From contig JAKFCT010000010.1 of NCBI GenBank assembly GCA_036676495.1, forward strand, positions 55,939-119,938: a stretch of 64,000 nt of DNA, written 5' to 3'. The notes below the pieces were generated by a model that saw only the letters and a program-made list of their open reading frames with translations, had not been told where the DNA came from and did no database searches. Below, in pieces: positions 1,977 to 20,704 of the stretch (position 1 is its first letter; every line of letters starts with the position of its first letter). The stretch comes from Candidatus Sericytochromatia bacterium. GTDB lineage: Bacteria; Cyanobacteriota; Sericytochromatia; S15B-MN24; UBA4093. The translations under genes were made by a program, and so were the position numbers.

Positions 1977-2126
1977 TCAGTCCCCTTTCAAAACAACGAC
2001 AAAACCCTTGGTTACTCCATCCTAATGCAGAAAACCACGCTTGGGAGTCACTTCGCGCAGAAATTCATCCCTAGAACAGGATTCCGCGCCGGCAAGACGT
2101 GCTCGACACGGCGATGAGCGGCGGGA

Positions 2127-3191
2127 TCAGAGGAGATGCGCCGGATCGGGCAAGGATCGGCGAAAGGTTACCTTCTTGTGCCAGCGCAGCAGCTTCTGTT
2201 CGCCGACCGCAATCTGTTGCGGCTTGAGCGTCGCGTTGAGCGCCTTGAGGGCCGTCTGGGCCTCCACATGGTTCTGAGCGGCGGCAAGCCCGAACCAGAA
2301 GTAGGCCGTGGACGGGTCCCGCTCGACATGGTTTCCGAAGTTGTAGGCCGTGCCGAGCGCGTACTGAGCCTCCGCATGCCCTTCTTCTCCCGCCTTCTGG
2401 TACCAACTCAACGCTTCTTTGCCGTCGAGGGGAACCCCGAACCCCATGGCGTGCATGTAACCGATGAGGAACATGGCGTCCGGATGATGATGTCGAGCGG
2501 CCTTGAGGAAGAGGGCATGAGCCATTGCGTAGTCCAAGGGGACACTCTGGGCATTGGCATAGAGTAAGGCCAGTTGGTAGTGCGCCTCCGCCAGATCTTG
2601 ATCGCTTGCCTTCCGGTAGTACTCCCTCGCCGCGGCGAGGTCTTGCGGAACCCCCTCCCCGCGGTGATACAGAAGGCCCAGATTCAGTTCCCCGTAGGCA
2701 TGCCCCGCCTCTGCGGCCAATCGGTACCAACGGGCAGCTTGCGAAAAGTCCTTGTCGAGCCCCTCGCCGTTTTCGTACATCCAGCCCAGGTAGACCTGGG
2801 CTGGCGGGAAGTTTTGCTGAGCAGCCAAGCGGAACCACGCTGCGGCGGCCGCTTCGTTCCGCTCCATGCCTTCGCCATCGTAGTAGACGACGCCCACATT
2901 GAACTGAGCCTCCGCGTTTCCTTGCTCCGCAGCCCGCTCCATCAAATCGAAGGCTTGAAGGAAGTCCGAATGCGACGAGAACTGAGCCGAGCCGAGGCTG
3001 AACGTGGCGACGTCCTCAGCGGGCTCACCGGCCAGCGTTCGATTTTCACTGCCGGGGGCAAGGAGCAAGTTGCCTAGCGGTTTTACCCACGCGCCTCCAT
3101 GTCCGAGACCCAGCCAGACCGAAGCGGCGACTCCGAGCAGGGCAGTGCCCCCTATGAGCAACCAAGCGCGAGGTTGAATCACCTGGACCAT
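2127..3191 (-). CDS. Sel1-like repeat protein with N-terminal membrane anchor
   Basis: Repeated AQxxLGxxYxxGxGV..D...A..WY..AA units; start codon uncertain (ORF open to 3326). Confidence 0.85.
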   Translation of the reverse strand: MVQVIQPRAWLLIGGTALLGVAASVWLGLGHGGAWVKPLGNLLLAPGSENRTLAGEPAEDVATFSLGSAQFSSHSDFLQAFDLMERAAEQGNAEAQFNVGVVYYDGEGMERNEAAAAAWFRLAAQQNFPPAQVYLGWMYENGEGLDKDFSQAARWYRLAAEAGHAYGELNLGLLYHRGEGVPQDLAAAREYYRKASDQDLAEAHYQLALLYANAQSVPLDYAMAHALFLKAARHHHPDAMFLIGYMHAMGFGVPLDGKEALSWYQKAGEEGHAEAQYALGTAYNFGNHVERDPSTAYFWFGLAAAQNHVEAQTALKALNATLKPQQIAVGEQKLLRWHKKVTFRRSLPDPAHLL

Positions 3192-3374
3192 TCCTTGACG
3201 ATTGAGGGCTCGAGCGGAAGGGAGGCCTGCACGCATCCTGGCTCGCCCGGCGTTGAATCCCGTCCGCTCCGGCTGAGCAAGCAACCCTTGGAATGATAAC
3301 ACGCATCCGCTGACTTTCCAGCTCAAAAACCTGGGCCCTACCGCGCGCAGGAGCCGGTTTTCAGGGCTCGGGGC

Positions 3375-4289
3375 TCACGCCATTTGAGGCGTCATGGCGA
3401 CGAAGCCCTGCAGCAGGGCTGCCACCTGCTCCGGGTGCTCCCACATGGGGAAGTGCCCGCAGGGATCCAGGGCCACGAGTCGCGCGTCCGGATGATGCTC
3501 GGCCGCCGCGTGGAAGAGGTCGATCGGGAAGAGGGGATCCTGCGCGCCGGCCACCATCATGATCGGGAAGGTCGCGTCCTTGAGGCGCTCGCGGTAGAGC
3601 GCGCTCGCGCCCGGCGTGAAATAGGCCTGGTTGGAGCGCATGGTGCTCAGGAAGGCCTGACGATGATACGCGTCGGCGATCACCTCGCAGCCCTGGCGCA
3701 GGACCTCCTTGAGGCGATCGCCCCCCACCTGCGGGAGGTCATGGAAGAGCGTCTCGTAATAGCGGCGAATCCCCCAGGGGTGCTCGACGCCGAGCAGCGG
3801 CGTGGCCATCAGCATGGCTTCCCCGAGCACCGGACGCAAGAAGGGTTGGAACAGCTCGGGAATCGGGACGTTCACCCAGACGGGCGGGACGCCGACGGTG
3901 GCGAGGCCCGCCACGCGGTGCGGGTTCATCAGGGCATACGAGCTGCCGATGAGACCGCCCATCGAATGGGCGACGATCGTGACCCGATCGAGGCCGAGGG
4001 CGGCCAAAAAGCTGTCCAGGAAGCGGTGATAGAACGCGAGGGTGTAGGCCGTGAGCGGCCGATCGGACTCGCCCCAGCCCGGGAAATCAGGCGCGAGGGT
4101 GCGTGCGTGGGCCGACAAGGCGACCTGGGTATCCCACCAGAACACGTTGCCGGCGGAGACCGCCCCGTGCAACAGCAGCACCGGAGGGCCGTCGCCCGCC
4201 TCGGTATACGTGATCCGGACCCCGTCGAGGACCACCTCGCGCTGGCACAAACCCTGACAACGAGATGATTCGCCGCCCTCAAAACGCAT
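3375..4289 (-). CDS. alpha/beta fold hydrolase
   Basis: LLLHG, PDFPGWG, AHSMGG nucleophile elbow, C-terminal GHFP. Confidence 0.9.
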   Translation of the reverse strand: MRFEGGESSRCQGLCQREVVLDGVRITYTEAGDGPPVLLLHGAVSAGNVFWWDTQVALSAHARTLAPDFPGWGESDRPLTAYTLAFYHRFLDSFLAALGLDRVTIVAHSMGGLIGSSYALMNPHRVAGLATVGVPPVWVNVPIPELFQPFLRPVLGEAMLMATPLLGVEHPWGIRRYYETLFHDLPQVGGDRLKEVLRQGCEVIADAYHRQAFLSTMRSNQAYFTPGASALYRERLKDATFPIMMVAGAQDPLFPIDLFHAAAEHHPDARLVALDPCGHFPMWEHPEQVAALLQGFVAMTPQMA

Positions 4290-4601
4290 CCCTACCCCCT
4301 TTCCGCCTACGCTGTCTTTTTATACCTCCTCCAAAGCGCTTGGGACACGTCAGCTTGGACGGCAATCGGCCTGTACGGGGCGGCTTACGCCGGATCCTCA
4401 TGGGATGAGCGAGGGTCCTTCGCACAACGGAAGCTCAGAGGCCTCCAGGATCCAAGGGCCGTACCGAGCCCTTCGGGTCCGCATGGCCGCGGGACGAAAC
4501 TTTGAGCCCCAGGAAGCCGATAAGGTACGGATGAGCAGGAAAAATGTCCTTTTGGCAACTCGTGTCATCCCCCCGAGCCTTGAGAACTAGAGGATCCAAC
4601 C

Positions 4602-5027
4602 GTGCCCAGTCTTGAAATCACCATGCCGCGCGTCGCCCCCGCGACCAAGCGGCGGCTCGCCGAGACCCTTACCCAAGCATTCGCTGAGACGACGACCTTC
4701 GAGCCCGAGATCTTCGGGATCTCGTTTCGCGAGTACGACCTCGAGGAAGCTGCGCATGGGGGCAAGCTCTGGGACGGCAGCGGGATTCCCCATCTGCACT
4801 TCCTGCTCTGTATCCCCCGGATCTCCCGTGCGACCAAGCAAAAGCTCGCCGAGACGCTTTCCCGGGTCTTCGGTGAGGGCATCGGCAACCCGGACTGGAC
4901 GCCGATCATCCACATCAACGAGCACCCCTACGACAATATCGTCGTCAGCGGAAAGCTCCTCACGGATCTGCACCCGCCGCTGGCGACACTTCCCTTCTAC
5001 TACCCGACGACGGATCGCGAGCCCTGA
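4602..5027 (+). CDS. tautomerase superfamily protein (fused 4-OT-like / cis-CaaD-like)
   Basis: Pro directly after the initiator; two internal ATKxxLAETL units. Confidence 0.7.
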   Translation: MPSLEITMPRVAPATKRRLAETLTQAFAETTTFEPEIFGISFREYDLEEAAHGGKLWDGSGIPHLHFLLCIPRISRATKQKLAETLSRVFGEGIGNPDWTPIIHINEHPYDNIVVSGKLLTDLHPPLATLPFYYPTTDREP

Positions 5028-5295
5028 AGGGCTCAGTGACAGGTGAGCGGCCTTGCGCCCTTCCAACGACGGCGCGCCAGCTTCGACGAGAGCGCGGGCC
5101 ATGTGCGGATAGCCGAGGGGTGTGGACGAAAAACCGACGAGATCGGTAACTGATACGGACGTAAGAACAAGGCCCCGGAGTTACCTTGAAGCTGTGAGGA
5201 GTGAGACCTGAAACGAGTGAAGCGAAGGACGGTTAACACCCTTCGAGGCGACACCGCCACGCAGTTGATTTTGTGAACAGGTCAACAGCCCCTCC

Positions 5296-5326
5296 GGCCC
5301 CCGCCATCCGCGCGGGGGCCTCTTCC
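5296..5326. terminator. GC-rich hairpin between convergent genes
   Basis: ggcccccgc...gcgggggcc followed by tcttcc. Confidence 0.45.
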
Positions 5327-5445
5327 ATTGAACCTCTTCAAAAGCCTTTCTTCCCACCTCGGATCGCCGTCAGGAGGCCTGAACGTCGGGCGATCTGGCT
5401 CAGGGAAATCCCGGAACGCGCTCAGAGTAGGCACGATCTCCCGGA

Positions 5446-6798
5446 TTAAACGTCGGCGGTCGTGGAGAGCGTGGGATCGTGGGGAACGACTTCAGTGGCG
5501 CGGCGCCAGCGGGCCGTGGCGAAGTATGCGATCGTGGCCGCGCCCAGGGTCAGGACGGTCCAGAGAAGCGCCATCGGAAAGGCGATGAGGCTTCCGATCA
5601 CGCTCCAGATCACTCCCAGCAAGTTGACGACCAGGGCCAGTAGGATCCCCTTCGAGATCGCCTTTCCCTTGATCTTAAGGACCGCGCTGGAGCTCAAGGC
5701 GCCAAAGAGGGCCAGGGTGACGCCCACGGCGTTCAGCATGACCTCGAAGGTGTTGGAGAGCAGCAGGATCACGGCCATCCCCGCGAGCAGCCCGACAGGG
5801 CCCGCACCGCCCCAGCGACCCTCGCGCCAACGCGCCCAGGACGGGAGGTAGCGATCACGGGCCATGGCGTCAGCGATCCAGGGTCCGGCCATGGCCATGG
5901 CAATGATGACCGAGACCAGGATCAGGAAGATCATGCCAGACGCCAGGCGGCCGCCGAAATCGCCCAGCAGGCGCAAAGCGACGAGGTGGCCGAGCGTGAG
6001 GGCTCCGCCTTCGGACTGCGTGGCGTGCTGCAGCTCCGCGGGCGAGAGGGCGGTCACGAAGACGAAATTCAAGAGCATGTACATGAGCGTGACGGAGCCA
6101 AGCCCGAGAAACATCGCACGAGGAACGTTCTTGACGGGGTCCTTCACCTGGGAGGCGAGATAGACCGTCATACTCCAGCCCGTGAAGGCGAAGCCGACGT
6201 AGTTCTGCGCGGTGGCAAAGGGAACGCTCGTGATCGCACTGAGGGTCTGAAGCGTGGGCAGGGCGCGCGAGGGCTCCGTGATGCCCGAGAACAACGCTCC
6301 TGCGAGGAAAACTAGGATGATCCCGAGCTTGAGCAAGACCCCGATATTCTGGACGAGTTCCCCCCACTTGAGCCCGCCGGCCTGAACCGCACTAACGGCC
6401 AGTAGGACGAGCAGGCCGATGGGCATGGCGATCGCCCGGCCCGTGAGCACCTCGGCATAAGCACCGGCGGCCACGGCGGCCAAGGCCATGGGAGCGGCAA
6501 AGCCGAAGATCAGGATGATCCAGCCTGCCAGGTAACCGGCAATGGGGTGGTAGAGGTCGTGGAGGTAGCGGTACTCTCCGCCACTCTGGGGGAGGTGGGC
6601 AGCGACCGCAGAGTAGCAAATGGCTCCGCAGGCGGCCAGGAGGCCTCCCAGCAGCCAACTCAAGAGAATGGCGGCGGGATCGAGGTCATGGGCCAGGAAG
6701 CCGCTGGTGATGAAGACTCCGCTGCCTATCATCGACGAGATGACCAGTCCGGTGGCACTGAACAGTCCAAGCGGCGCGGTGAGACGGGCGGTGGACAT
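5446..6798 (-). CDS. APC family amino acid permease (paralog 2)
   Basis: Collinear with and highly similar to 570-1976 (MSTARL..PLGLFSATGLVISSMIGSGVF). Confidence 0.9.
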   Translation of the reverse strand: MSTARLTAPLGLFSATGLVISSMIGSGVFITSGFLAHDLDPAAILLSWLLGGLLAACGAICYSAVAAHLPQSGGEYRYLHDLYHPIAGYLAGWIILIFGFAAPMALAAVAAGAYAEVLTGRAIAMPIGLLVLLAVSAVQAGGLKWGELVQNIGVLLKLGIILVFLAGALFSGITEPSRALPTLQTLSAITSVPFATAQNYVGFAFTGWSMTVYLASQVKDPVKNVPRAMFLGLGSVTLMYMLLNFVFVTALSPAELQHATQSEGGALTLGHLVALRLLGDFGGRLASGMIFLILVSVIIAMAMAGPWIADAMARDRYLPSWARWREGRWGGAGPVGLLAGMAVILLLSNTFEVMLNAVGVTLALFGALSSSAVLKIKGKAISKGILLALVVNLLGVIWSVIGSLIAFPMALLWTVLTLGAATIAYFATARWRRATEVVPHDPTLSTTADV

Positions 6799-6933
6799 TC
6801 AGCCCCCTTTCAAAACAGCATCGAAATCACGGTATTCCCCAATCCTAGAGCACGAACGCCTGGCTATGCCACTAACAGGGGGAAATATGGCGGTTGTTTT
6901 CGCAGCCTTGTTAGGTTTTAAAAGCCTCCGGCC

Positions 6934-7042
6934 GAGACCTTCGACGGCTCGCAAAACAAAGCTGACGGGATGCAAGTTGCGCACGTCAGGTAAAGTGCCC
7001 TTGAGGGGATGCCAATCGATCTTTCTTCACCAAGCTATGCGA
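6934..7042. repeat. att-like junction repeat copy A (hairpin + tRNA-3'-end-like core + arm)
   Basis: ctgacgggatgcaagttgcgcacgtcag...gtgcccttgaggggat aligns with 11471-11577 and 13406-13468. Confidence 0.65.
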
Positions 7043-7226
7043 TCGAGAGAGCATTGGTAGGTGTTCCTTGGCCCGAAGAGCTGAAGCGAGTGCATTTGTA
7101 AGCTGGAAAACCAACGGGTCCTGTATGATAGGGGAGCCTCGTAACGCGGCGCAGTTTGAGCCTCGCCTCTCTCCTTGCTCGCGGGGTGAGCCAACGTGTC
7201 ATGCTCTCATAACAAGGAGTCCGCAG

Positions 7227-8117
7227 GTGTCAAAATTGCGCTTCAAGCTAGCAGGATCTATCCTCCTGGCTTGCCTGCTCTTCCTGGCAGGATGGGCATT
7301 CTGGTTTGAGCCCCGTGTCCTTGTAGCCAGAGAAGCGGCTCTCGACGTGCCACGCTGGAACCCCGCCCATGAGGGGCTCCGTGTTGCACTCTTGGCAGAC
7401 CTCCATATCGGCTCCCCACAACATGGCATTGCGAAGTTGCGCGAGATCGTCGCCCGAGTGAACCAGGCAGAGCCCGATGTCATTCTGCTTCTGGGCGATT
7501 TCGTCATTCAAGGCGTGAGAGGCGGAACTTTCGTCCCCCCTGAGGAAGCAGCAGTCGAGCTCTCCAAGCTTCGAGCCCCGTACGGGAAATTTGGGGTCTT
7601 GGGCAACCACGATTGGTGGTTGGACGGCCCAAGAGTCGCCGCGGCGCTCGAGAGCGCAGGCGTCACGATGCTGGAGAACACCTCCACGAAGCTGACCATA
7701 AACGGTCAACCGCTGTGGCTTGCTGGTGTCAGCGACTACGTCGCAAGCCAACCCGACTTGAATTCAGCTCTCAGAGGGATCCCTGAGGATCACCCCGTCC
7801 TCTTGCTGAGCCACAATCCGGATTTTTTCCCGCACGTTCCTCAGCGGGTTTCCCTCACGGTCTCGGGGCATACCCATGGCGGCCAAGTCAATCTGCCGTT
7901 CATTGGTCGGCCCGTCGTTCCTTCCGCATTCGGCGAACGCTTTGCAGCTGGCCATGTCGTGGAGAACGGCCGACATCTCTACGTGTCTACCGGAACCGGA
8001 ACCAGTATCTTGCCTGGTCGGTTCCGAGTGCCGCCAGAATGGGGGGTGCTGACGCTTCGCCCCCTTGGACAGGTTCAATCCACCAAACCGTCTTCATCGG
8101 CGAGAATCGTCCGGTAG
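7227..8117 (+). CDS. metallophosphoesterase (calcineurin-like, YkuE/YaeI type)
   Basis: ADLH, GDF, GNHD, SHNPD, GHTHGGQ motifs; N-terminal TM; AAGGAG RBS before GTG 7227. Confidence 0.9.
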   Translation: MSKLRFKLAGSILLACLLFLAGWAFWFEPRVLVAREAALDVPRWNPAHEGLRVALLADLHIGSPQHGIAKLREIVARVNQAEPDVILLLGDFVIQGVRGGTFVPPEEAAVELSKLRAPYGKFGVLGNHDWWLDGPRVAAALESAGVTMLENTSTKLTINGQPLWLAGVSDYVASQPDLNSALRGIPEDHPVLLLSHNPDFFPHVPQRVSLTVSGHTHGGQVNLPFIGRPVVPSAFGERFAAGHVVENGRHLYVSTGTGTSILPGRFRVPPEWGVLTLRPLGQVQSTKPSSSARIVR

Positions 8118-8182
8118 CGGATCTAATCATGTAGGCCGAAACGATGTGCTTTAGATAACTTCGACCTAAGCACTACTGACAC

Positions 8183-8217
8183 GATAGTTCCTCTAACCTC
8201 TTAACCACGTTAACCGA
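8183..8217. repeat. partial junction repeat copy D (arm only)
   Basis: gatagt...cttaaccacgttaaccga matches gatagt...cttaaccatgttaaccga at 11543-11577. Confidence 0.55.
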
Positions 8218-8416
8218 GAAGGTCATCAGGTCCACACCGTGACGCTCGCGAGCAATAAAAGAAAATATCCCGAAACCTACAAGAAAATATCAAAAAAGAA
8301 CTGAGTCACATCGGGTATAAGGTCAACTAGACGATTGGCAGCAGACATGCTCGTTCCTGGAGCGTGTCAAAAGCTATGCGCCGTTTCTCGACATATTCTA
8401 CTAAGAGATCAAGCAA

Positions 8417-8863
8417 TTGAAGAATTGTAGCGAACCATGCACCTTCTGCCAGATCATTAACAAAGAAGCGCCAGCGAGTCTCGTCTTTGAAGATGAAGAC
8501 ATCATTTCATTCCTAGATTTGGCCCCCGTAAACGCTGGACATCTCTTAGTGCTGCCGAAGCAGCATGCGTTTTCTTTGTCAGACTTGGATGAGCGTATTA
8601 GCCTTCGTGTATTCGAGATAGCGCTGCAGTTGTCGAGAGTACTTCGAGATTCCGAGCAGGACTGGGAGGGGATGAACCTACATCTCGCGGAAGGGGAAGC
8701 TGCCGAGCAAGGTATTCCTCACGCCCATTTGCACGTGATCCCACGTAGACAGGGGGATGCGGTCAAAATCCATCTACCGTGTCTGCGGTCGCCTAAACGC
8801 GAAGAGCTCGACTCGCTCGCCTCACGTTTACGCCAAGGGCATCAAGTCATGAGGAATCGCTAG
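8417..8863 (+). CDS. HIT family hydrolase
   Basis: CTFCQII, GHLLVLPKQH and HAHLHVIPR histidine triad. Confidence 0.9.
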   Translation: MKNCSEPCTFCQIINKEAPASLVFEDEDIISFLDLAPVNAGHLLVLPKQHAFSLSDLDERISLRVFEIALQLSRVLRDSEQDWEGMNLHLAEGEAAEQGIPHAHLHVIPRRQGDAVKIHLPCLRSPKREELDSLASRLRQGHQVMRNR

Positions 8864-8898
8864 AGACGAGCAAGTTCGCATTTGTGAGGAGGACTACA

Positions 8899-9549
8899 TT
8901 GAAAAGTATTCGTTCCATCCTACTTGCTGGTGCGATCTGCAGCTTGATCCAAGGCCCAGCCCTGGCCTACGAGCTGGTATTCGATGTCGATTCGCGTTAC
9001 AACAACCTTGCTCGGGTAGCAAGTGCCTCAAAGGTGGTGGAGCTTGCCGTTACGAACCCTTATCATCCGGAGGCTCTGCTGAAGTCCTCGGGGCGTTTCC
9101 AGTATACTTTCACCCCGATGGTGCCGGTTCAGGACCAAGACAACGGCGTCACGATGACGCGCCATGGCCAGATCTTTAAAATTACTCCGCTGGACGCCGA
9201 GGGAAGACCTATTGGACTTGGCTCGACCTCCGTGAGCGTGGTTCCTCGCCAAGTCTTCAACGGCGCTACGGTCAAGAGCTTGCTAACACCTGCGAGTGGC
9301 CTCGTGGCATCGGCGTTGGCTGGCTACTACTCAGGAAGCCAGCTTTCCCCAAATGCCACGGCCGGAGCGAACATGGTTAATGCAACGGCGCTCGTGGCTT
9401 CGGTGCTAAGCTTGGTAGCCCATGGGATGACTACCTGGGAGATAATTACCGCCAGTTACCAGTATGACGAACGCTACGTCTTCGAAGCCAGACCCAGCCA
9501 AGATCAGGCTAGTGGCATAAGGTTCACGCGGCGGCTGAGCAGCAACTAG
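8899..9549 (+). CDS. hypothetical secreted/membrane protein
   Basis: AGGAGG RBS before TTG; signal peptide ending ALA; two hydrophobic segments near the C-terminus. Confidence 0.6.
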   Translation: MKSIRSILLAGAICSLIQGPALAYELVFDVDSRYNNLARVASASKVVELAVTNPYHPEALLKSSGRFQYTFTPMVPVQDQDNGVTMTRHGQIFKITPLDAEGRPIGLGSTSVSVVPRQVFNGATVKSLLTPASGLVASALAGYYSGSQLSPNATAGANMVNATALVASVLSLVAHGMTTWEIITASYQYDERYVFEARPSQDQASGIRFTRRLSSN

Positions 9550-9558
9550 GAGGTTCAC

Positions 9559-9717
9559 ATGCATGGCACTGGTAAGAAACCGGACGTAGAGGGCGGCTGC
9601 ATGGGCACTTTTGCCCTGCAAGAATGTAATGGTTGCGGCCACGATAATTGTGTGAACGCCAGTTGGAAAACGTGGACCTGTTGGTCATGCAACCATCATA
9701 ACCACATCGGCCGTTGA
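9559..9717 (+). CDS. 52-aa zinc-ribbon-like microprotein (not in ORF track)
   Basis: GGAGG RBS; MHGTGKKPDVEGGCMGTFALQECNGCGHDNCVNASWKTWTCWSCNHHNHIGR with CNGC and CWSC. Confidence 0.55.
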   Translation: MHGTGKKPDVEGGCMGTFALQECNGCGHDNCVNASWKTWTCWSCNHHNHIGR

Positions 9718-9854
9718 ATTTCCTTTGAACCGCTCCTCAAGGAACCTAACCCCACAGGAGTTCAGCCGAAAGACCAATTACATGGAGTGAGACAGAAGCT
9801 TTAGGCGACTCTATTACTGGTGTCAGGTCAGGCCTATAATAGACAATGAATATA

Positions 9855-11279
9855 CTAAGAGTTCGTACCGGGGAGCGTTAGAATTTTCATTGGTTCCCTC
9901 ACTTGCCCAGTTTCGTCTACCAGCGAGTAGGGTTCTTTCTTCTTTACCTTGCCTAACACTTCCACAAGCGCCTGAGAGTAGCGCCCATTATGGTTCCCAT
10001 TTAGGCCAACATCAAGATGGTACTTATTATTACCGAATTTAACATCGAAGCCCGTATCTAACTTCACCTGCTTAATCAGCCGATCAACGTGGTACCAGCT
10101 TTTGTATCCTAATTTTTTTCCTACATCGCTGAGAGAGTAAGGATAGAGCAAGGCAATAGCATCGGGGTCGGAAACAGTACCAAACCCTAGCACGTTCATA
10201 AGATTGCTTTCCGTCGATGAGGAGTCAAGAGTCGCAATGTTTACTGAAAGACTTGCGTTTGCCGATTTGTTCTTAACAATATCATAGATATTAGTCATCA
10301 AGTTCCTAAGATAACGAACGTCGATTTGTTTAACTGCTACTGGTTGCGATATGGTCTCGAATAGTGCTCCAAAACTGTCAACCAAAAGGTAGTTTACCCT
10401 AATTGAGCGGCCATCACCAAGATCAATAACTTTCTCACTAGGTGGTCTTTTACTCTGATCAAACGAGCTCTGCCAATCGACAAACCAAATATTTCCGACC
10501 AAGTCGCCTGACTCACCTGGGACCATCTCCGCGATATCAGACAGTATTTCCTTGATATTCATATCTGAAACGGAATATCCCATAATTATTAACGGGAATT
10601 CAATGAAATAGGTCAAGAGTTTTGCAGTGAGATACTTCTTCTTCCTCATGAATTCTTGGTAGTCTTCGTGAGATATCACTAGTGACTCTGGTTCCGAAGC
10701 ACATCCATGAACCTTAAGGATTTCGCCAATTGCCTCAAAAACTGGCTTTCGAATAATTTTCTGACCAATAATAGGATTGAAGAAGGGAAAGACCTTTTCC
10801 ATTAGACCATCGTAATTAGTTGTAATCACAGCATGGGGTTCGACCTTTGACAGAAGTTTGAGTTCGACAGAGGTCGGCGTATCAGTAAGATCAAGATTGA
10901 CCTTCTCGGTCAGGCTAGTAAACAATGACGCAATCTTATGCTTTAGAAAAATACCTTTGGAATAAGTTCCCGTATAAAGGTAGTCAGGGAACAACCCACT
11001 GCCGTGCTGTTCCCAGGCATAGGTCTGGTAACCATCCTCAAGTAATGACGCAACCTTTGGAAGATCGTGGTCGGCCCTTTGCGAATAAAATCCAAACGGC
11101 ATATCAAGCTTAGGGTTCTCTGAAACTAGATACTCCAGCAATTCAGGCCAAGATGGTGCCTGTAGATACCTTTTGGATAGGCCTGCGCCTACAAAGAGAA
11201 TCGGTCGGCAGCCCATCTCTTGAATAACGGATCGCAGATGGAGAAGAGAATCTCTTAAATAGTCGTCATAAATTTTCAT
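9855..11279 (-). CDS. SIR2-like (SIR2_2) domain protein, candidate anti-phage NADase
   Basis: ILFVGAGLS, ITTNYD, LKVHG, IMGYSVSD motifs; AT-rich. Confidence 0.85.
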   Translation of the reverse strand: MKIYDDYLRDSLLHLRSVIQEMGCRPILFVGAGLSKRYLQAPSWPELLEYLVSENPKLDMPFGFYSQRADHDLPKVASLLEDGYQTYAWEQHGSGLFPDYLYTGTYSKGIFLKHKIASLFTSLTEKVNLDLTDTPTSVELKLLSKVEPHAVITTNYDGLMEKVFPFFNPIIGQKIIRKPVFEAIGEILKVHGCASEPESLVISHEDYQEFMRKKKYLTAKLLTYFIEFPLIIMGYSVSDMNIKEILSDIAEMVPGESGDLVGNIWFVDWQSSFDQSKRPPSEKVIDLGDGRSIRVNYLLVDSFGALFETISQPVAVKQIDVRYLRNLMTNIYDIVKNKSANASLSVNIATLDSSSTESNLMNVLGFGTVSDPDAIALLYPYSLSDVGKKLGYKSWYHVDRLIKQVKLDTGFDVKFGNNKYHLDVGLNGNHNGRYSQALVEVLGKVKKKEPYSLVDETGQVREPMKILTLPGTNS

Positions 11280-11470
11280 AACTGCTCCAAAATAATGAAG
11301 ACTTGCTTGCCTTGTACATTCATAGCGCTACGACCTATTTAGGTCAAATGACTGATAGAATTATTGCCTGACGCATGCACCCTAATCTACGGTATCTACT
11401 CGTTTCGCGGCGTTTATGGGTAATTGTCGAACCGACTTGCTCTCCTGGAAAGTCCACGTCTCTCCAAATA

Positions 11471-11577
11471 GAGGCCTTCGACAGCAAAGCAAAACCGGCG
11501 TGATGCAATGTGCATCACGCCGGTTTTGAGTACCCCTTACGGGATAGTCTTCAAACTTACTTAACCATGTTAACCGA
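11471..11577. repeat. att-like junction repeat copy B
   Basis: aaaaccggcgtgatgca-atg-tgcatcacgccggtttt then gagtaccccttacgggat; close match to 13406-13468. Confidence 0.85.
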
Positions 11578-11686
11578 CTTAGAGTCCCTTTGCGATCTCT
11601 AACGTGTAAGCAAATAGCGGGGCAAGGTCACCCTCGATAGTTTGAAAACCTGGATCAAGGCCATAGGAGCTATAATCGAGACATAG

Positions 11687-13276
11687 TTGCCACGTCAAAC
11701 GCCGGATCGGAGGGACGCGTTGTCTGAGGATGTTGAAACCCAAGGCACGACCTGGTGTGAGTGTTGCCGTTCGCCCATGAACGAGGGCATACAGACCGAA
11801 CATGGCTTTGTGTGCTCGGTCCAATGTCTCAACACCGAACGAATCTGCGGTTCCATCCTCGAAAAGGCTCTAACTACCGGTTCGGCCTCCACCGCCATTC
11901 CAGGTTCAGTGAACAACTATGGGGATACCGTGGTCTTCGGTCCCGAACGCGGCCATGGAATTGCGGCAGAGCGAGCCAACCATTTCGTCGACGTTCTTAA
12001 AGGGCGAGACGCCAGTCACGTTGGCGGAGACAATGCCAAGAACGGTCCAGATCGCTTGGTAAACGGTATCAATATCCAAAGTAAGTATTGCCACTCTGGT
12101 TCAAAATGCATTGCCGAATGCTTCGATGAAAAGGGCGCATTTCGCTATCGCAACGTCGATGGCAGCCCAATGCAAATCGAGGTTCCATCGAACTACTACG
12201 AGGATGCTGTTAAAGCTTTAGAGAATCGAATTCGCCGAGGCCAGGTCCCCGGTGTAACCGATCCAGCAAAAGCCAAGGAGATCATTCGAAAGGGCGCGCT
12301 GACCTATCAACAGGCACGGAACGTCGCCAAGTTTTGCACGGTCGAATCACTCACCTACGACGCTATCACGGGGATCCAGGTAGCCGGCACAGCCTGTACG
12401 GTGACGGTTGCCATTTCATTTGCGCACGCCCTGTGGAACGGCGAAGACTGGAACGCCGCCGTCAAGCTTGCGGCTTCGTCAGGGCTCAAGGTCGGTGGCG
12501 CGGCATGGCTTACCAGCATCATTTCCGCTCAGCTAGCCAGAACCGGAGTGGAGGGGGCGATGCGCCCGGCCACCGATTTCATGGTCAAGAAGCTCGGTGC
12601 AAAGACCGCGGCTCAGCTGGCGAATGCCCTGCGGAACGGGAGTACGATTCATGGTGCCGCCGCCATGAATCACCTCTCCAAGGTGTTTCGCGGGAATATA
12701 GTTACCGGGCTAGTGACAACTGTGGTGCTCTCATCTGCGGACATTTCTCGCATGGTTCGAGGCCGGATCTCTGGACTCCAAGCCTTTAAGAACATTACGA
12801 CGACGGCAGTCGGCGTCGCAGGCGGAACTGGAGGATGGATGGCCGGCGCTGCCGCTGGGGCAGCGCTCGGATCGGTGGTTCCCATCATTGGCACAGCGGC
12901 TGGCGGACTGGTGGGCGGATTGTTCGGCGCATTTGCAGGAGGCTCTCTGGGGAGTTCAGGAACCAAGGCCATCCTCGATTGCTTTATTGAAGATGATGCC
13001 AAGCAAATGGCTGAACGCTTCGAATCAGAGTTGGTCCTTCAAGTTGAGGAATTCATGCTCAATGAGGGGGAAATAGCCCGTCTACTTGAGCAAGTGGATA
13101 AGATTGACTTCGGAAAGGAACTTCAGAATATATACGCGTCCAGCAGCCGCAAGGCCTACCTGGTTCATCTTATCAAGCCACTCGTCGTCAGCGTCGTGGC
13201 CGAGCGCGGTTCGATCGCTCTCCCGAACGAAGATCAGCTATTGGATAGCATCAGCGACCTTGTAGAAACCCCCTGA
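11687..13276 (+). CDS. YeeR-like protein (Cys-rich N-terminus, possible nuclease-like core, Gly-rich hydrophobic C-terminal region)
   Basis: GHGIAAERANH..GGDNAKNGPDRLVNG..IQSKYC..PMQIEVP resembles, from recall, the C-terminal part of E. coli CP4-44 YeeR; start uncertain. Confidence 0.65.
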   Translation: MPRQTPDRRDALSEDVETQGTTWCECCRSPMNEGIQTEHGFVCSVQCLNTERICGSILEKALTTGSASTAIPGSVNNYGDTVVFGPERGHGIAAERANHFVDVLKGRDASHVGGDNAKNGPDRLVNGINIQSKYCHSGSKCIAECFDEKGAFRYRNVDGSPMQIEVPSNYYEDAVKALENRIRRGQVPGVTDPAKAKEIIRKGALTYQQARNVAKFCTVESLTYDAITGIQVAGTACTVTVAISFAHALWNGEDWNAAVKLAASSGLKVGGAAWLTSIISAQLARTGVEGAMRPATDFMVKKLGAKTAAQLANALRNGSTIHGAAAMNHLSKVFRGNIVTGLVTTVVLSSADISRMVRGRISGLQAFKNITTTAVGVAGGTGGWMAGAAAGAALGSVVPIIGTAAGGLVGGLFGAFAGGSLGSSGTKAILDCFIEDDAKQMAERFESELVLQVEEFMLNEGEIARLLEQVDKIDFGKELQNIYASSSRKAYLVHLIKPLVVSVVAERGSIALPNEDQLLDSISDLVETP

Positions 13277-13353
13277 CCAATCCTTGCCGAGTGTATTTTC
13301 TCTGATTTTCAGAACGGGCAATGAGTCCTACACTTCACCTGGACGGCCGCGTC

Positions 13354-13391
13354 TGACCTGCCCCCGAAAACTCCTCCAACCCGCATTAGAA
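13354..13391 (+). mobile_element. possible isolated IS3-family (IS407-like) terminal inverted repeat
   Basis: TGACCTGCCCCCG start resembles IS407-group ends; no transposase or partner IR seen. Confidence 0.3.
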
Positions 13392-13415
13392 GCTCTCAAG
13401 CCGATCAGCAAAGTA

Positions 13416-13450
13416 AAACCGACGTGATGCAAGTTGCATCACGTCGGCTT
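13416..13450 (-). terminator. intrinsic terminator of tRNA-Glu (part of repeat copy C)
   Basis: ccgacgtgatgcaa/ttgcatcacgtcgg stem, followed by a T-rich run on the minus strand. Confidence 0.8.
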
Positions 13451-13453
13451 GAG

Positions 13454-13526
13454 TACCCGATACGGGATTCGAACCCGTGTTACCGCCGTGAGAGGGCGGC
13501 GTCCTAGGCCTCTAGACGAATCGGGC
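13454..13526 (-). tRNA. tRNA-Glu (anticodon CUC); CCA not encoded
   Basis: GCCCGATTCGTCTAGAGGCCTAGGACGCCGCC-CTCTCAC-GGCGGTAACACGGGTTCGAATCCCGTATCGGGTA folds as a cloverleaf. Confidence 0.97.
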
Positions 13527-13540
13527 TTGGAACAAGGTTC

Positions 13541-13570
13541 ATCCTAGCATAACGCCTCAAAGAGTGTCAA
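13541..13570 (-). promoter_or_regulatory. sigma70-type promoter of tRNA-Glu
   Basis: TTGACA-N18-TAGGAT with TGn extended -10. Confidence 0.65.
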
Positions 13571-13668
13571 AGAGAAATTAAACCCAATTTAAATCGCGCA
13601 AGACCAAGGGACTGGGTAGGTATATAGAAGATGGTCTCGAGTAATCCCTTCCCGAAAGGAGCCGACCC

Positions 13669-16458
13669 ATGGTGCAAGTGGCGGATGCCGGTGGAACGCG
13701 GCCCGTAAACCCTACGGCCGCAACCATTTCTGCTGCGGCCAACGCTCCGGCTCCTCAGGCGGCCGCAACCCCGGAGGCTGCCGCGCAGCCCCGGATGTCC
13801 AGTGATACCTTCGAAGGTATCCCCGAGACCCTCAAGATCAAGTCCGGGGACACCCTGGGCAGCCTGGTCGCCAAGTACCAGGTGACTTACGACCAGCTCA
13901 AAGAGCTGAACCCCGAAATCTTCAAAGAAGGCACCGACGCCAAGGGCCGCAAGCGCGCAAGCGACGGACACTGGATCTATCCCGGCGACGTCATTCGCCT
14001 GCGGACGGCCTCCGCCCCCAAGCCCGCAACCCCTCCGGCCACGGCTCCCGCCACGACTCCGACGGCCACCGCCACGACCGCCAACGGGAAGGTCGTCGAG
14101 GCCGCCAAGTCCGCCATCAACGAGGCAGCGATCATCCCCTCGACGGCTTCCAACGGCCGCGAGCTCTCCCAGCAGGTCTTGAGCAAGGCCCAGGAGATGC
14201 TCAAGCTGATCCCCGCGAGCGATCCGGCCCGGGGCCAGTTCGAAGGCAAGGTCAGCCGACTCGAGCGGGAATTCAAGGCCATTTACCCGCCTCCCGCCAG
14301 CGCGCAGGAGCGCTTCGACACGGCCAACGAGGGCTTCAACCAGGCCGTCCAGAACTACTACGACGCGTCCGGCAAGGCCGCCCAGGGCGAGTCCCGCGAT
14401 CAGGCGATTCGCTACTTCAGCGAAGCCCGGGACGCCGCCCGTGAGCTGACCTCGGACGATGCCAAGCTGGAAGCCGGCGAGCGGCTCGAAATGATGGAGT
14501 TCGCCCTCACGGACATGGGCGTCAACGCCTCGGCGATCGCCCTGGCCCGCGGCGAGGGAACGGACGCGACTCCGAGCGCCGCCGCCCCCGAGCCGACGTT
14601 CGCCGAGCGCGACAAGAACCAGGACGGCTACCTCTCAGGCAACGAGCTCGATGCGAAGGCCCGCTCCTTCGATGCCGACGGCAACCAGCGCGTCACCCGC
14701 GAAGAGTGGGAGATGGGCCAGATGGCCGAGCGCGAAGTCGAGTGGAAGCGCGAGTTCAAGCAGGCCGACGCCAACCAGGACGGCTGGCTCTCGGGATCCG
14801 AGGCGGCTTCCTTCAGCGCCCACGACGCCAACGGAGACTTCGAGGTCACCGAGCAGGAGTACCTCAACGCCAAGCGCGCCCAGGTGATGAACGGCGTCTA
14901 CGATCAGGACTTCGCCGCGCGGGATAAGAACCAGGACTCCTACCTGTCGGGCAACGAGCTCGACGCAGCGACCCGCGCCTTCGACACCAACATGGACGGT
15001 CGGGTCACCCGCGAGGAGTACATGGCCGCCAAGTCGGGCGCCATGCCGGCGGGAAGCGCTCCCATGACCGCGACGCCCGTCGGCCAGATGCCGGGGGCGA
15101 CCGTGCCTGCCGCCGGAATTCCGCAGCCGCAGCCGACGGCTCCCTCCAACCCGCTGGAGGCCTTCGAGGGCGCGAGCGCTCGCTTCAACGACGCGGCGAC
15201 CCGCAACGACGTGCTCACCATGACCACGGCCTACCAGGACGCGGCCTACGCCATCGCCTACATGCCGACCGGCGCCGAGCGTGACACGCTGGCCGCACAA
15301 CTGGAGATCATGGGCTTCACGCTCCAGCAGGCCTACGCCGCCACGGGTACCCCCGTCGCCGCCGGCGGCAGCGTGACCGGCCTGACGGCCCAGCCCCTCA
15401 CCCCCGGCGTGCAGGTTCCTGTCACTCCTGCCGCCATCCCGGGTCAAGCCGGTTACCCGGCCACCGCTTACCAGGCGGCTGGCTACCCGGCAGCGGGCTA
15501 TCCCGCCGGCGCCTATCCTGCCGGTGCCTACCCCGTCCAGCCCGGCGCGCCCATGGCTCCGGCGGCGTATCCGCAGGCCGGTTATCCCGTCACGGCGACG
15601 GGCGTCCCTCAGGCGGCCGTGGTGCCTCCGGCGGCTCCTGCCGCTCCGGCCGAGCCTCCGCGCCAGACCTACACCCAGGTCTGGTCCAGCCCCGACTACC
15701 TTGCCGAGGCCATGGGCTACAACAAGCCGGCTCCCGCGTCGCCCAACGGCAATCAATCGGCGCAAGGCACCACTCCTCCGGGAACTGACGCCACCCAGGG
15801 CACCCAGACTCCGAACGGAGCCAATGGCCAGCCTCCGGTGAACGAACAGGCGGTCCGGGAGATCGATGCCTTCCTCCAGCGCTCGGACGCCAACGCCGTC
15901 CGCGACATGCTGGCCAGCCGCCCCGAGTTGCTCTACGACTCGCTGCCGCGCCAGAAGGCCGCCATGCTTCGCCTGCTGGTCGAGGGACGGACGGATGCGG
16001 GCGATCGCTCCGCCATCGTCAACATCCTCGACATGGCCGCCAAGACCGAGCAAGTGGACACCATGCTCAACGAGCTCGACGGCCTCTACGGCGGTGCCGG
16101 CAAGGGCATCAAGCGCATGTTCGAGGACCTCGACCAGGCCACCAAGGGTGCGGCGCTCAAGGCGATGTTCACCCCCTCGCTCATGCAGTACCGCAAGTAC
16201 GATCCCGCGGCCTTCGACGCGGTGGTCGGCGCCATGACCAAGGACGACATCAAGCTCCTGATGGAGTCCATGGGCTACGGAGTCTCGTCCCCCTGGATGA
16301 GCGTCTTCTCGCCCCAGGCCCGCCAGATGATGATGGACAAGCTGGGCAGCGGCTTCAACCTCTTCGGGCTCTTCGGAGGCACCGAGAAGCAGATGATCGC
16401 GGCCTTGCAGCAATCCGCCGTCGCCTACACCCCGCAGGTCCAGCCCCCGGCCAAGTAA
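13669..16458 (+). CDS. LysM and EF-hand-repeat protein, 929 aa
   Basis: KIKSGDTLGSL..LKELNP..IYPGDVIRL LysM; six DxxxDG-like Ca-binding loops; Pro/Ala/Tyr-rich linker. Confidence 0.8.
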   Translation: MVQVADAGGTRPVNPTAATISAAANAPAPQAAATPEAAAQPRMSSDTFEGIPETLKIKSGDTLGSLVAKYQVTYDQLKELNPEIFKEGTDAKGRKRASDGHWIYPGDVIRLRTASAPKPATPPATAPATTPTATATTANGKVVEAAKSAINEAAIIPSTASNGRELSQQVLSKAQEMLKLIPASDPARGQFEGKVSRLEREFKAIYPPPASAQERFDTANEGFNQAVQNYYDASGKAAQGESRDQAIRYFSEARDAARELTSDDAKLEAGERLEMMEFALTDMGVNASAIALARGEGTDATPSAAAPEPTFAERDKNQDGYLSGNELDAKARSFDADGNQRVTREEWEMGQMAEREVEWKREFKQADANQDGWLSGSEAASFSAHDANGDFEVTEQEYLNAKRAQVMNGVYDQDFAARDKNQDSYLSGNELDAATRAFDTNMDGRVTREEYMAAKSGAMPAGSAPMTATPVGQMPGATVPAAGIPQPQPTAPSNPLEAFEGASARFNDAATRNDVLTMTTAYQDAAYAIAYMPTGAERDTLAAQLEIMGFTLQQAYAATGTPVAAGGSVTGLTAQPLTPGVQVPVTPAAIPGQAGYPATAYQAAGYPAAGYPAGAYPAGAYPVQPGAPMAPAAYPQAGYPVTATGVPQAAVVPPAAPAAPAEPPRQTYTQVWSSPDYLAEAMGYNKPAPASPNGNQSAQGTTPPGTDATQGTQTPNGANGQPPVNEQAVREIDAFLQRSDANAVRDMLASRPELLYDSLPRQKAAMLRLLVEGRTDAGDRSAIVNILDMAAKTEQVDTMLNELDGLYGGAGKGIKRMFEDLDQATKGAALKAMFTPSLMQYRKYDPAAFDAVVGAMTKDDIKLLMESMGYGVSSPWMSVFSPQARQMMMDKLGSGFNLFGLFGGTEKQMIAALQQSAVAYTPQVQPPAK

Positions 16459-16475: not shown

Positions 16476-16499
16476 CGGCCCACCCTCTTGGGTGGGCCG
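16476..16499 (+). terminator. hairpin terminator
   Basis: cggcccaccc-tctt-gggtgggccg after the stop codon. Confidence 0.6.
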
Positions 16500-16549
16500 C
16501 TTGCTTTCGGGTATAGGGGATAGAGAGCCTGATTCGAGGAGGCACGACC

Positions 16550-17209
16550 ATGGCGTTTCTTGCCGCTTGGACCCTGACGGCCGCGCTTGCAAGCAAGCCC
16601 AACCTGGTTTACTCGCTGCCGGCTCCCGTCGTGCGCACCTATCCGGTCTCCGGGCAAAGCCTGGAGGAGCTGCTGGAGGCATGCCGCACGCTGGGCCCCA
16701 GCGACACCGAAGGCCGGAAGTTCCCGGGATTGACCCGCTACGCGTACCGGACGCAGTACCGCTACGACTACAAGGTCGAGGACGGGCTCGCCATCATTCG
16801 CTTGACCGAGCTCGCGGTCGACTGGAGCCACGAGATCACCCTGCCGACCCTGGCCCCGGGCGTCCGCCTCCCGGCCCGCGAGGCCTCCCGCTGGAAACAA
16901 TTCCTCGAGCAGCTCCAGGCGCACGAGGAGGGCCACCTGGGGATCACCGCCGATCCGCGGCTGAAGGATCACTTCGAGGCGATCGCCCACCGCCACCGGG
17001 TCCTCTACAAGCCCGTCGGTCCCTCCGGAGCCGTCACCGCCGAAGGCCTCCAGGAGGTGATCGACCAGGCGATACAACCCGCCATCCAGCGCATCTCCGC
17101 GCAGATCGCGCGACGGAACCGCGAGTTCGACTTCACGACCGAGCACGGGCTCCGGCCGGACGCCCTCGATCGGACCCGCTTCTTCGCCGAGCTCTGGGAC
17201 GGGCTCTAG
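16550..17209 (+). CDS. DUF922-like predicted secreted Zn-dependent protease
   Basis: YPVSGQS N-terminal motif, WKQF..L..HEEGH zincin motif; GAGGAGG RBS. Confidence 0.7.
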
Positions 17210-19266
17210 CCTTCGAGCGCTTCCGTGAGGGCCAGGGGATCGGTGACCGGCCGCTGGCAGGCGAATCGCTCGCAGACGTATGCGGCGGGCCGGCCCTCGA
17301 GTGGGGTTCGCCCCTCCAGCAAGGGAAGGCTCGCGCCATCTCCTGCCGTGTGGGCGATCGCCACTCCGGGCAGGTAGCGAAGCATCACCACCTTCAAGAG
17401 CGCCTGGGTCTCGGGAGCCTCGCGCGGGCCTGCCACCACGACCTCGCGGCTGCCGACGAGAAAATCGTCCACGATCGCCAGCATGGCCGGATAGGCCGAC
17501 GGGAACTTGCCGAGCGCCGACGAGAAAGCCTTGAGCGTTCCCTCGGCTTTCTCCCGGAAGTTCGATTCCCAGGTCAGGCTCGCCAGGCGCAAGAGGGCGT
17601 CGGCCGCCGCCGAGTTCCCGGAGGGAAGGGCATTGTCCATGGAGTCCTTGGTGCGCGCCTTCAGGAGCGGATCCTGATCGACTCCGGTGAAGTAGAAGCC
17701 CTCGTCCTCATGGTCCCAGAAGCGGGCGATCGCCTCCGCCATGAGGCCGCGCGCCTCCTTCACCCAGTAGGGATCGAACGTGACCTCGTAGAGATCGAGC
17801 AAGCCGCCGGCCAGGAAGGCGTAATCGTCGAGGAATCCCTCGATCGCAGCCTCGCCGTCCCGCCAGCGCCGCAGGAGGCCTCCCGGGGTCTTCATGCGAT
17901 CGAGCACGAAGCGGGCGGCGCGCTCCGCGCCTTCCCGGTAGCGCGGCTCCGAGAGGGCGCGCGCGGCATAGGCCATGGCACCGATCATCAGGCCGTTCCA
18001 GGACGTGAGGATCTTGTCGTCGAGGCCCGGACGAACCCGACGCTCGCGCGCCTCGAAGAGGCGCCGGCGCACGCGTTCCAGGCGCTCACCCACGTCGCGA
18101 AGGCTCATGTTGAACTCCGAGGCCAGGACCTCGGGAGTCGCCCCGACGTGCAGAACGGTCTCGCCGGAATGCTCGAAGTTGCCTTCCGGCGTCACGCCGT
18201 AGGCGCGCCTCGCAAAGGCGGCGTCGTCGCCCAGGACCTCGGAGAGTTGCTCGGGCGTCCAGACGTAGAAGGCGCCCTCCCGTCCCTCGGAATCGGCGTC
18301 TTCCGCCGAGAAGAACCCGCCTTCCGCATGGGTCATGTCGCGAAGCACGTAATCGAGCGTCTCGCGGGCTATCCGGGCGTGCTCGGGGTTTCCCGTCACC
18401 TGGTAGGCTTCGACGTACGCGCGGGCGAGGAGCGCGTTGTCGTAGAGCATCTTCTCGAAGTGAGGCACCTGCCAGAAGGCGTCCACCGAGTAGCGGGAGA
18501 AGCCGCCGCCCAGCTGGTCGTAGATTCCTCCACGCGCCATGGCCGTGAGGGTTTTCTCAACCATGACGAGCGATTGGCGATCGCCCCGGCGGACGGCCTG
18601 CCGCAGCAGGAGCGAGAAGATCATCGGGCGGGGAAACTTGGGAGCTTGACTGAAGCCGCCGTGGCGGGGATCGAACTGCTGCTTGAAGCTCGCCACCGCT
18701 TGCTCCACCAGGTGCACTCCCAGCGTTCCGGGACCGTGGCTGGCCTGATCCTGCTGGATGGCAGCCAGGATCTCGGAGCCCGAACGCTCGATCTCGTCGC
18801 GCTTGGTCTTCCAGACATTGTCGATGAGGCGGATCAAGCGCTTGAAGCTGGGGCGCCCATGGGCGTCCACGGGCGGGAAGTAGGTTCCAGCGAAGAAAGG
18901 CTTTCCTTCGGGGGTCATGAAGACCGTCATGGGCCAGCCTCCCTGGCCGGTCATCGCCTGAACGGCGGTCATGTAAAGGCTGTCGACGTCCGGGCGCTCC
19001 TCGCGGTCCACCTTGATGCTGACGGCGGTCTCGGCCAGCAGATCGGCGACTTCCTGGCTCTCGAAGGACTCATGCGCCATGACGTGGCACCAGTGGCACG
19101 TGGAGTAGCCCACGCTCAGGAAGATGGGTTTGTCCTCGCGCTTGGCCTTGTCGAAGGCCTCATCCCCCCACGGGTACCAGTCGACGGGATTGGTGGCATG
19201 CTGCTGCAAGTACGGTGATTTCGCGTGAATCAAGCGATTGGGATGGCGCCCCGCGTCGTTCGTCAT
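17206..19266 (-). CDS. thioredoxin-domain protein, YyaL/SSP411 family (DUF255)
   Basis: [39 protein letters not shown]. Confidence 0.95.
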
Positions 19267-19408
19267 GAGCCCTCCTCCCCCGGACGAGCCCTCGCCCGAG
19301 CAATCCCTCGATCGTAGCCTCCCGGGCAGGTGCGGTCAACCAGAGGCATGATCGGCCAACGGCCGGGATCCTGGGAGAGGATCCCGGCCGTTGGCCGATG
19401 ATTTACCG

Positions 19409-20320: not shown

Positions 20321-20598
20321 CAGGAATCCTCCGTGTCTGCCGTCGAGGCTGAGCGGGTACTTTCGGCGCAAGTGACCGAGCGCAAGGGCAGGGCGAGATC
20401 GCGCACTTTTCTCAGCACGCCATGCAAGGCGGCCTGATCCGGCAAAGGGCCGGTCAAACGCGTGTCGCCATCGGCTTCCAGCGTGATGGTAAGGCCGTCG
20501 AACCAGTCCGTCCATTGACGGCCCAGGTGGCCCTTGATCCGGATTTCCCAGATCGTCCCCTCGCCTGAACCTGTGTTGGGTTGTCCGTCCTCTGCCAT
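20320..20598 (-). CDS. conserved small protein associated with MalT-like regulators
   Basis: [27 protein letters not shown] motif; stop overlaps the next ATG. Confidence 0.7.
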
Positions 20599-20704
20599 GG
20601 TGCGGCCCTCTTCTTGGTCCGTCCGACCAAGTGCTCTCGTTACGAGCAGTATAGAGGCGCCCCCTGGGGCTCGTAAGACACTTTGGTGTGGAGTTGCGCG
20701 CGCC

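Follow-up and report, generated by a model that had tools for sequence, protein, structure and literature searches.

The closest described counterparts of the locus studied here are the tRNA-linked islands of Prochlorococcus, in which serial integration has left tycheposons and their remnants parted by partial copies of the tRNA (10.1101/2020.12.28.424599). Our subject is a 64-kb window – the whole stretch of DNA that was analysed – and, within it, the segment 6930–13468, which adjoins the gene for tRNA-Glu(CUC). We consider it rather probable that this segment is a small genomic island which arose at the 3′ end of the tRNA gene through serial site-specific insertions and then decayed. The two settings agree in lying next to a tRNA gene, in having partial tRNA copies as the sole separators and in an order whereby newer insertions would push older ones inward; most of the Prochlorococcus islands also lack an intact element, defence genes are among the cargo, and both hosts belong to the cyanobacterial lineage in the broad sense. 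Our locus differs in that neither a tyrosine recombinase nor a replication module nor any piece of an integrase was found in it (the tycheposon-type recombinase and replication module are absent from the island frames and window open reading frames, ORFs, that were scanned), in its blocks of 1.1–3.2 kb, in the extra conserved arm and the tRNA terminator contained in its junctions, and in its target, tRNA-Glu(CUC). Membership of the tycheposon family cannot be claimed; it is only the island architecture that matches.

The streptococcal cis-mobilisable elements (CIMEs) offer a second comparison: in that setting, elements decay to gene-poor modules flanked by attachment (att) sites, which then accrete at the same tRNA 3′ site (PMC5704250). 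The likeness to our locus lies in the missing integration and transfer genes, the att-type repeats at a tRNA 3′ end and the tandem arrangement of modules. However, CIMEs are defined there beside a related integrative and conjugative element (ICE) or integrative and mobilisable element (IME) with a mobilising integrase; none is known here, and only the junctions formed by the repeat units that we call A and B look intact.

The locus likewise recalls integron arrays and CALINs, in that short unrelated cargo units alternate with a recurring, recombination-site-like element and no recombinase lies nearby. CALINs are clusters of attC sites without an integron integrase. Here, by contrast, the repeat copies the end of a tRNA, a tRNA gene serves as the anchor of the array, and genes on both strands stand in place of promoterless cassettes behind a common promoter. 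The first-pass annotation had called the array ‘integron-like’, a label that we drop since neither an attC nor another RNA family was found and the arm has no conserved fold. As to the position of the break, the T-loop is a usual crossover place for tRNA-targeting tyrosine integrases, and Williams reportedly distinguished (Nucleic Acids Res, 2002) a T-loop sublocation class of tRNA integration sites. In keeping with this class, our identity block runs from the 3′ side of the T-loop via the acceptor strand to the tRNA end; unlike in this class, it continues for ~65 nt beyond the tRNA end, taking in the terminator and a leader.

Structures of this kind are well known; what appears to be new is the lineage of the host, the use of tRNA-Glu(CUC) as target and the motif of the arm. 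The tRNA-Glu(CUC) gene emerges as an insertion hot spot in two genomes of the Sericytochromatia, a little-studied, non-photosynthetic sister group of the cyanobacteria, and the scars share a recognisable arm motif that can serve as a probe for the integrative elements of this lineage and for their recombinase. As an island, the locus is of an ordinary type, in which decayed modules have accreted on a small scale; it includes a candidate single-gene defence system (SIR2, PDC-S25) and, in the block next to the tRNA, a widely transferred YeeR_C protein.

Repeat units behind tRNA-Glu(CUC)

The window has an overall G+C content of 0.65, contains both the dcw cell-division cluster and the Rho gene, and would appear to be chromosomal DNA from a Sericytochromatia-like bacterium. 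Its sole tRNA gene is that for tRNA-Glu(CUC), with a predicted promoter-like site at 13570–13541 that contains TTGACA. Between this gene and that of an amino-acid permease lie 6.5 kb of DNA of lower G+C content (minimum 0.41). The G+C content at third codon positions (GC3) is 0.45–0.67 in the six island genes, as compared to 0.83 in the permease gene and 0.87 in that of the LysM/EF-hand protein on the other side of the tRNA. The compositionally foreign DNA starts directly after the tRNA-Glu terminator, and at the far end the outermost repeat unit, C, coincides with the composition boundary. As had been read from the sequence at the outset, the repeats divide the low-GC region into unrelated cargo blocks (numbered 1 to 3 from the tRNA), with the units at the edges of the DNA of foreign GC3. 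The tRNA gene and the units are as follows:

13453–13526, minus strand: intact tRNA-Glu(CUC), putative integration target (ARAGORN; Rfam tRNA, 59 bits)
13385–13468, minus strand: unit A; last 16 nt of the tRNA (T-loop end to 3′ end), terminator hairpin 13415–13450, ~20-nt leader
11465–11577, minus strand: unit B; leader, perfect 18-bp hairpin 11490–11528, tRNA 3′-end copy 11530–11545, variable spacer, arm 11560–11577
~8130–8217, minus strand: unit D, decayed; stem remnant, degenerate tRNA-end segment, GATAGT, well-kept arm 8200–8217
6930–7030, minus strand: unit C, most diverged, where the island ends on the left; leader, weakened hairpin, tRNA-end copy, AAGCTA-subtype arm

The repeated stretch comprises the last 16 nt of the tRNA up to the discriminator base, three further bases, a terminator hairpin of 17–18 bp and a short leader. 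Copies A (13406–13468) and B (11482–11545) are identical in 55 of 64 aligned columns with one gap, the figure given by the first-pass annotation; the repeat finder put identity at 87% for the hairpin part (45 nt) and at 90% for the tRNA-end part (20 nt). In nhmmer searches with single copies as queries, run against the window together with four loci retrieved from other genomes (L001–L004; 137 kb in all), unit B recovered A (E = 8e-10), C (6934–7055; 6.9e-7), a unit in L001 (2.2e-5) and D (8144–8218; 0.11), and unit A recovered C with E = 5.7e-4. The divergent copy that had been suspected near 6950–7010 is thereby located at ~6934–7055.

Likeness of the units to the tRNA stops inside the T-loop, at GGGAT. 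Beyond this point, units B, C and D and the L001 unit have a common 5-nt insertion and the arm, both absent from the tRNA, which bears out the earlier remark that the upstream copies share an arm that the tRNA copy lacks; unit A has none because its sequence runs on into the real tRNA. The core motif of the arm reads TGGTTAAG on the minus strand, corresponding to CTTAACCA on the plus strand. Searched for with up to three mismatches, the arm CTTAACCAYGTTAACCGA occurs at two sites in the window, 8200–8217 and 11560–11577, which are 17/18 identical, and the same search on 100 shuffled sequences gave zero matches. The copy at 8200–8217 had been described as an arm standing alone: the arm is indeed present, but it is preceded by the decayed remnants of unit D, whose tRNA-end segment is identical to that of B at 11 of 17 positions (hand count on the alignment). 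The arm of unit C, CTTCACCAAGCTATGCGA, has diverged further (13/18 versus B, hand count).

All units lie in direct orientation, in the same direction as tRNA-Glu, and are confined to the stretch behind it. The unit profile detected no further copies in the remaining ~57 kb of the window, and in the 73 kb of loci L001–L004 only the L001 unit, so that, within the window, the wider search proposed by the first-pass annotation keeps the repeat inside the island. This distribution bears on the reading that the unit is a generic dispersed repeat, REP-like (repetitive extragenic palindromic) or from a terminator family, lying near the tRNA by coincidence. While such a reading accommodates the fact that units A and B are strongest in their terminator-like hairpin, which has T-runs on either side, the absence of copies elsewhere in these sequences, the 16-nt tRNA-end copy held in the unit and the uniform orientation along the tRNA make it very unlikely. 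In a phage collection, the unit matched two records over a 27-nt stretch with E = 0.1, which we take as chance; in a plasmid collection it had no match.

Could the array have been created by assembly, through the stringing together of alternative strain alleles at a shared repeat? A metagenome-assembled source is likely, the relatives are almost all metagenomic, and the proteins of the window are recorded from a contig of 119,938 nt. However, A and B have no exact word in common beyond 10 nt (hand count), which is too short to bridge an assembly graph at usual k-mer sizes, and the units differ from each other by 14–40%. We regard an artefact of this kind as extremely unlikely.

Outside the units, 14 of 16 flank comparisons were at background and two were borderline (the right flanks of B and the L001 unit, z = 3.2; the left flanks of C and D, z = 3.5), neither of them scoring above the best shuffle. 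As the flanking DNA is unrelated between copies, the unit is a bounded module of ~110 nt. The first of the borderline cases is a gapped similarity between 11601–11654 and L001 762–813, at similar offsets just inside the arms of B and of the L001 unit; with a z of 3.2 equal to that of the best shuffle, it might reflect either a longer element-side arm or chance.

The hairpins, folded as RNA, reach −26.5 kcal/mol in unit A and −32.6 kcal/mol in unit B, where the hairpin is terminator-like on the minus strand, and two compensatory pair changes are seen among A, B and C. Units C and D and the L001 unit have no strong hairpin. The core beside the arm boundary is identical in A and B (TACGGGAT in both) and altered in D (ACACGAT versus ACGGGAT) and C (GGGGAT); the change in D points to decay of the older junctions. 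As separate candidates, we considered an attC or integron-like site and a whole pseudo-tRNA gene, and rejected both. For the former, Rfam at E-values up to 1 returned the tRNA and one overlapping sub-threshold tRNA-like match, with no dedicated attC model run; no conserved fold emerged for the arm part (−2.5 kcal/mol), and, of the five unit sequences folded, those of C, D and L001 did no better than shuffles, with z near 0. For the latter, ARAGORN and Rfam find the real tRNA only, and beyond the T-loop, arm and tRNA agree at ~12 of 27 positions (hand count).

The tRNA-Glu locus in a second Sericytochromatia genome

A genome scan with the flanking LysM/EF-hand protein confirmed four loci among the matches listed (598 stretches). 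Only L001, from a metagenome-assembled genome of Candidatus Sericytochromatia, contains an ortholog among these four, the other three being distant, partial-protein matches. The LysM/EF-hand protein of L001 is 68% identical over its whole length, and its tRNA-Glu gene stands in the same place with one difference over the 74 nt compared. Homology covers the LysM gene, the promoter region and the whole tRNA and ends exactly at the tRNA 3′ end, so that the comparison of relatives which the first-pass annotation had put forward yields, for this single relative, a break at that very point. The terminator hairpins that follow the two tRNAs are unrelated. The intergenic stretch 13527–13668 is strongly conserved with respect to L001 9860–10000, including the TTGACA of the predicted promoter.

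Behind its tRNA, L001 carries cargo of its own: hipBA, a glutathione (GSH) peroxidase, MarR, an isochorismatase, pirin and a large Sel1 protein. The hipBA-type set lies right behind tRNA-Glu (8111–9685) and comprises a helix-turn-helix antitoxin-like ORF and separate ORFs for the N-terminal and C-terminal parts of HipA, the kinase being split over the two. At 696–750, 9.1 kb from the tRNA, L001 has the unit found by nhmmer, consisting of a tRNA-end copy, the 5-nt insertion and the arm; this arm is closest to that of unit C (~25/32, hand count). Since unconstrained sequence is unalignable between the window and L001, the arm must be either constrained or horizontally spread, and, as far as the two sequences can tell, it is part of something that would target tRNA-Glu in more than one species.

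The comparison with L001 also informs the reading in which the units arose by local duplication or unequal recombination of a pseudo-tRNA and terminator module, with the cargo arriving by other routes. That B, C and D share a derived 5-nt insertion and an arm absent from the tRNA is readily explained in this way, and the genome-specific hairpin type of A, B and C fits duplication or concerted evolution. Yet duplication leaves unexplained why three unrelated and compositionally different sets of cargo sit exactly between the units, why likeness to the tRNA ends in the T-loop, and why the same arm occurs at the tRNA-Glu of a distant relative with different cargo; we consider it improbable, if not as remote as a dispersed repeat or an assembly artefact.

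Probable serial insertion and decay, and the case for cassettes

The interpretation of the first-pass annotation, successive site-specific insertions, stands as the best reading in view of the direct repeats, the T-loop limit, the foreign composition and the break in L001. There were probably at least three successive insertions of integrative elements with one common attachment-site design. Read along the direction of the tRNA, each junction would consist of an element-side arm followed by the displaced tRNA end, from the T-loop on, with its terminator; the arm would come from the younger element, and the tRNA end and terminator would have been brought by the older one. Younger insertions would have pushed older ones away from the tRNA, and the integrase and most other element genes would have been lost since, leaving three integrase-less modules of 1.1, 3.2 and 1.8 kb. 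From this layout we infer that a tyrosine-type integrase crossed over at the T-loop, in what order the events took place, and that the integrases were lost. Two features of the units follow from it: the pairing of a younger arm with an older tRNA end explains how in D a well-kept arm can lie beside a badly decayed tRNA fragment, and the retention of the hairpin via compensatory changes is what one would expect of elements that each have to provide the tRNA with a functional terminator.

Several observations sit less comfortably with serial insertion and decay. Unit B and the L001 unit have ACCCCTT(A/G)CGGGAT, with CT for GA, as against ACCCGATACGGGAT in both tRNAs, so that the B fragment, as a tRNA 3′ end, would fail to pair with the 5′ acceptor strand GCCCGAT at two positions. 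This may mean that the fragment belongs to the element side, that the crossover lies 3′ of the fragment and thus further 3′ than the T-loop, or that the tRNA was temporarily defective. Next, A, B and C have one hairpin type and the L001 tRNA has another, which may reflect homogenisation within the genome or array rather than independent donors; alternatively, the difference could stem from a lineage-specific element subfamily. The comparison itself involves a single relative, which is distant (68% identity of the flanking protein) and has a left flank that is not syntenic. Furthermore, the blocks are integrase-less in four of four cases across the two genomes, with no fragment remaining, which is somewhat odd for random decay. 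Finally, no excision product was seen, nor a close strain with an empty site, nor a cognate recombinase.

The missing integrase agrees with the first-pass annotation, which had noted no recombinase ORF. Domain scans detected no recombinase domain in the five main island ORFs, in the remaining 63 of 68 stop-to-stop frames with at least 45 aa within 6800–13450, or in the 51 window ORFs of at least 100 aa, the island ORFs included. In the L001 segment, no recombinase was found in the 12 longest ORFs or in 103 of the 110 stop-to-stop frames of at least 45 aa (600–9790), the remaining seven frames matching ORFs scanned among those 12. The blocks do not qualify as autonomous elements and have to be classed as remnants or dependants.

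Dependants would be at issue if the blocks were living minimal cassettes, each made of cargo and a bipartite attachment module of ~110 nt, moved by a tRNA-Glu-specific recombinase encoded elsewhere. On this account one would welcome the sharp bounds of the units, with nothing shared beyond their edges, the lack of an integrase in all four blocks of the two genomes, and the identical TACGGGAT core kept by the A/B pair around block 1. The better preservation of the D arm (17/18) than of the adjoining tRNA segment (~11/17) and the conservation of the arm across two species also speak for cassettes, although the difference within D is equally predicted by relics, as the D arm would then stem from a younger insertion than the tRNA fragment. 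On the other hand, the junctions of blocks 2 and 3 have decayed at the presumed core (ACACGAT in D, GGGGAT in C), the strong hairpin is gone from the L001 unit and from C and D, neither a recombinase nor a circle nor any polymorphism was seen, and there are three blocks only. We therefore deem living cassettes unlikely, a little less so than local duplication. The more specific proposition that the ~110-nt unit, with its leader, hairpin, tRNA-end copy, spacer and TTAACC arm, is a complete attachment module that captures cassettes of 1–3 kb in Sericytochromatia is doubtful to practically the same degree. Were it true, it would amount to a tRNA-anchored counterpart of the integron that collects defence and accessory genes behind tRNA-Glu(CUC); only if the modules move in trans as minimal cassettes would the locus reveal a new mechanism.

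Cargo blocks and neighbouring genes

The blocks, their genes and the two flanking genes are the following:

13669–16458, plus strand: right flank, LysM/EF-hand protein (GC3 0.87), syntenic with the tRNA in L001
11578–13384: block 1, ~1.8 kb
11777–13276, plus strand: YeeR_C-family protein (PF27347), sole gene of block 1
8218–11464: block 2, ~3.2 kb, four genes
9855–11279, minus strand: SIR2_2/PDC-S25 protein, 474 aa
9559–9717, plus strand: Cys-rich peptide, 52 aa, seven cysteines with CxxC-type spacing (read by eye)
8899–9549, plus strand: protein with a signal-peptide-like start, 216 aa (read by eye)
8417–8863, plus strand: HIT protein
7031–8129: block 3, ~1.1 kb
7227–8117, plus strand: membrane-anchored metallophosphoesterase (YaeI/LpxG-like), 296 aa, sole gene of block 3
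5446–6798, minus strand: left flank, amino-acid permease of core composition (GC3 0.83)

Of the six island genes, SIR2 alone is encoded on the minus strand, against five on the plus strand. Of the cargo labels proposed by the first-pass annotation, phosphoesterase, HIT, SIR2 and YeeR are confirmed by family, and the secreted protein and the Zn-ribbon, for which the domain scans gave no family match (nor did the secreted protein have a usable atlas match), are readings by eye. The claim that some cassettes carry defence-type genes holds for one block, with one candidate: the SIR2_2 protein of block 2 is a match (3.7e-85) to PDC-S25, in PADLOC a candidate single-gene defence family, and a weaker one to the ThsA and LmuA models.

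The SIR2 gene has a G+C content of 0.43 and a GC3 of 0.45, within a block whose GC3 values span 0.45–0.64; as its composition is far below that of its neighbours, block 2 is itself a mosaic. Neither repeat finding nor the unit profile revealed a repeat between the SIR2 gene and its neighbours in the block. The gene for the Cys-rich peptide starts 9 nt after that for the signal-peptide protein, and the two may form a pair.

In block 1, the YeeR_C gene (GC3 0.60) encodes a protein of 499 aa that is 55–58% identical to proteins of Vibrio, Citrobacter, Heliophilum and cyanobacteria. Such a distribution of similar proteins suggests frequent transfer, and it suggests that the gene is mobile and possibly linked to defence. 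Its homologues include fusions with TerD, GTPase or zinc-ribbon domains, and one 85%-identical homologue lies on a contig of 1,823 nt. An in-frame stretch, 11687–11776, precedes the ORF. In block 3, the metallophosphoesterase gene has a GC3 of 0.67; the nearest named relatives of its product are from Acidobacteria (58–59% identity), and the start and the 296-aa length match the protein record. Close homologues of the LysM/EF-hand protein share 94% and 73–74% identity with it. No shared contig was indicated between the LysM/EF-hand homologues and the listed homologues of YeeR_C or of the metallophosphoesterase, a result that says little.

To the right of the island, L001 passes directly from the LysM/EF-hand gene to orthologues of window 26273–26830 and 30565–32418. 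Given this gene order, the window’s 16.5–26 kb region has no counterpart there (16492–26000 versus L001 12700–15000) and represents either a second variable region or a rearrangement. It contains a 908-aa protein without a family (GC3 0.63), an alcohol dehydrogenase, a MalT/LuxR regulator, a hydrolase, a tryptophan 2,3-dioxygenase and a gene of the class-V aminotransferase fold. To the left of the island, the permease gene is one of two AA_permease_2 paralogues within 5 kb, at 570–1976 and 5446–6798, both on the minus strand, with a Sel1-repeat protein and a hydrolase encoded between them.

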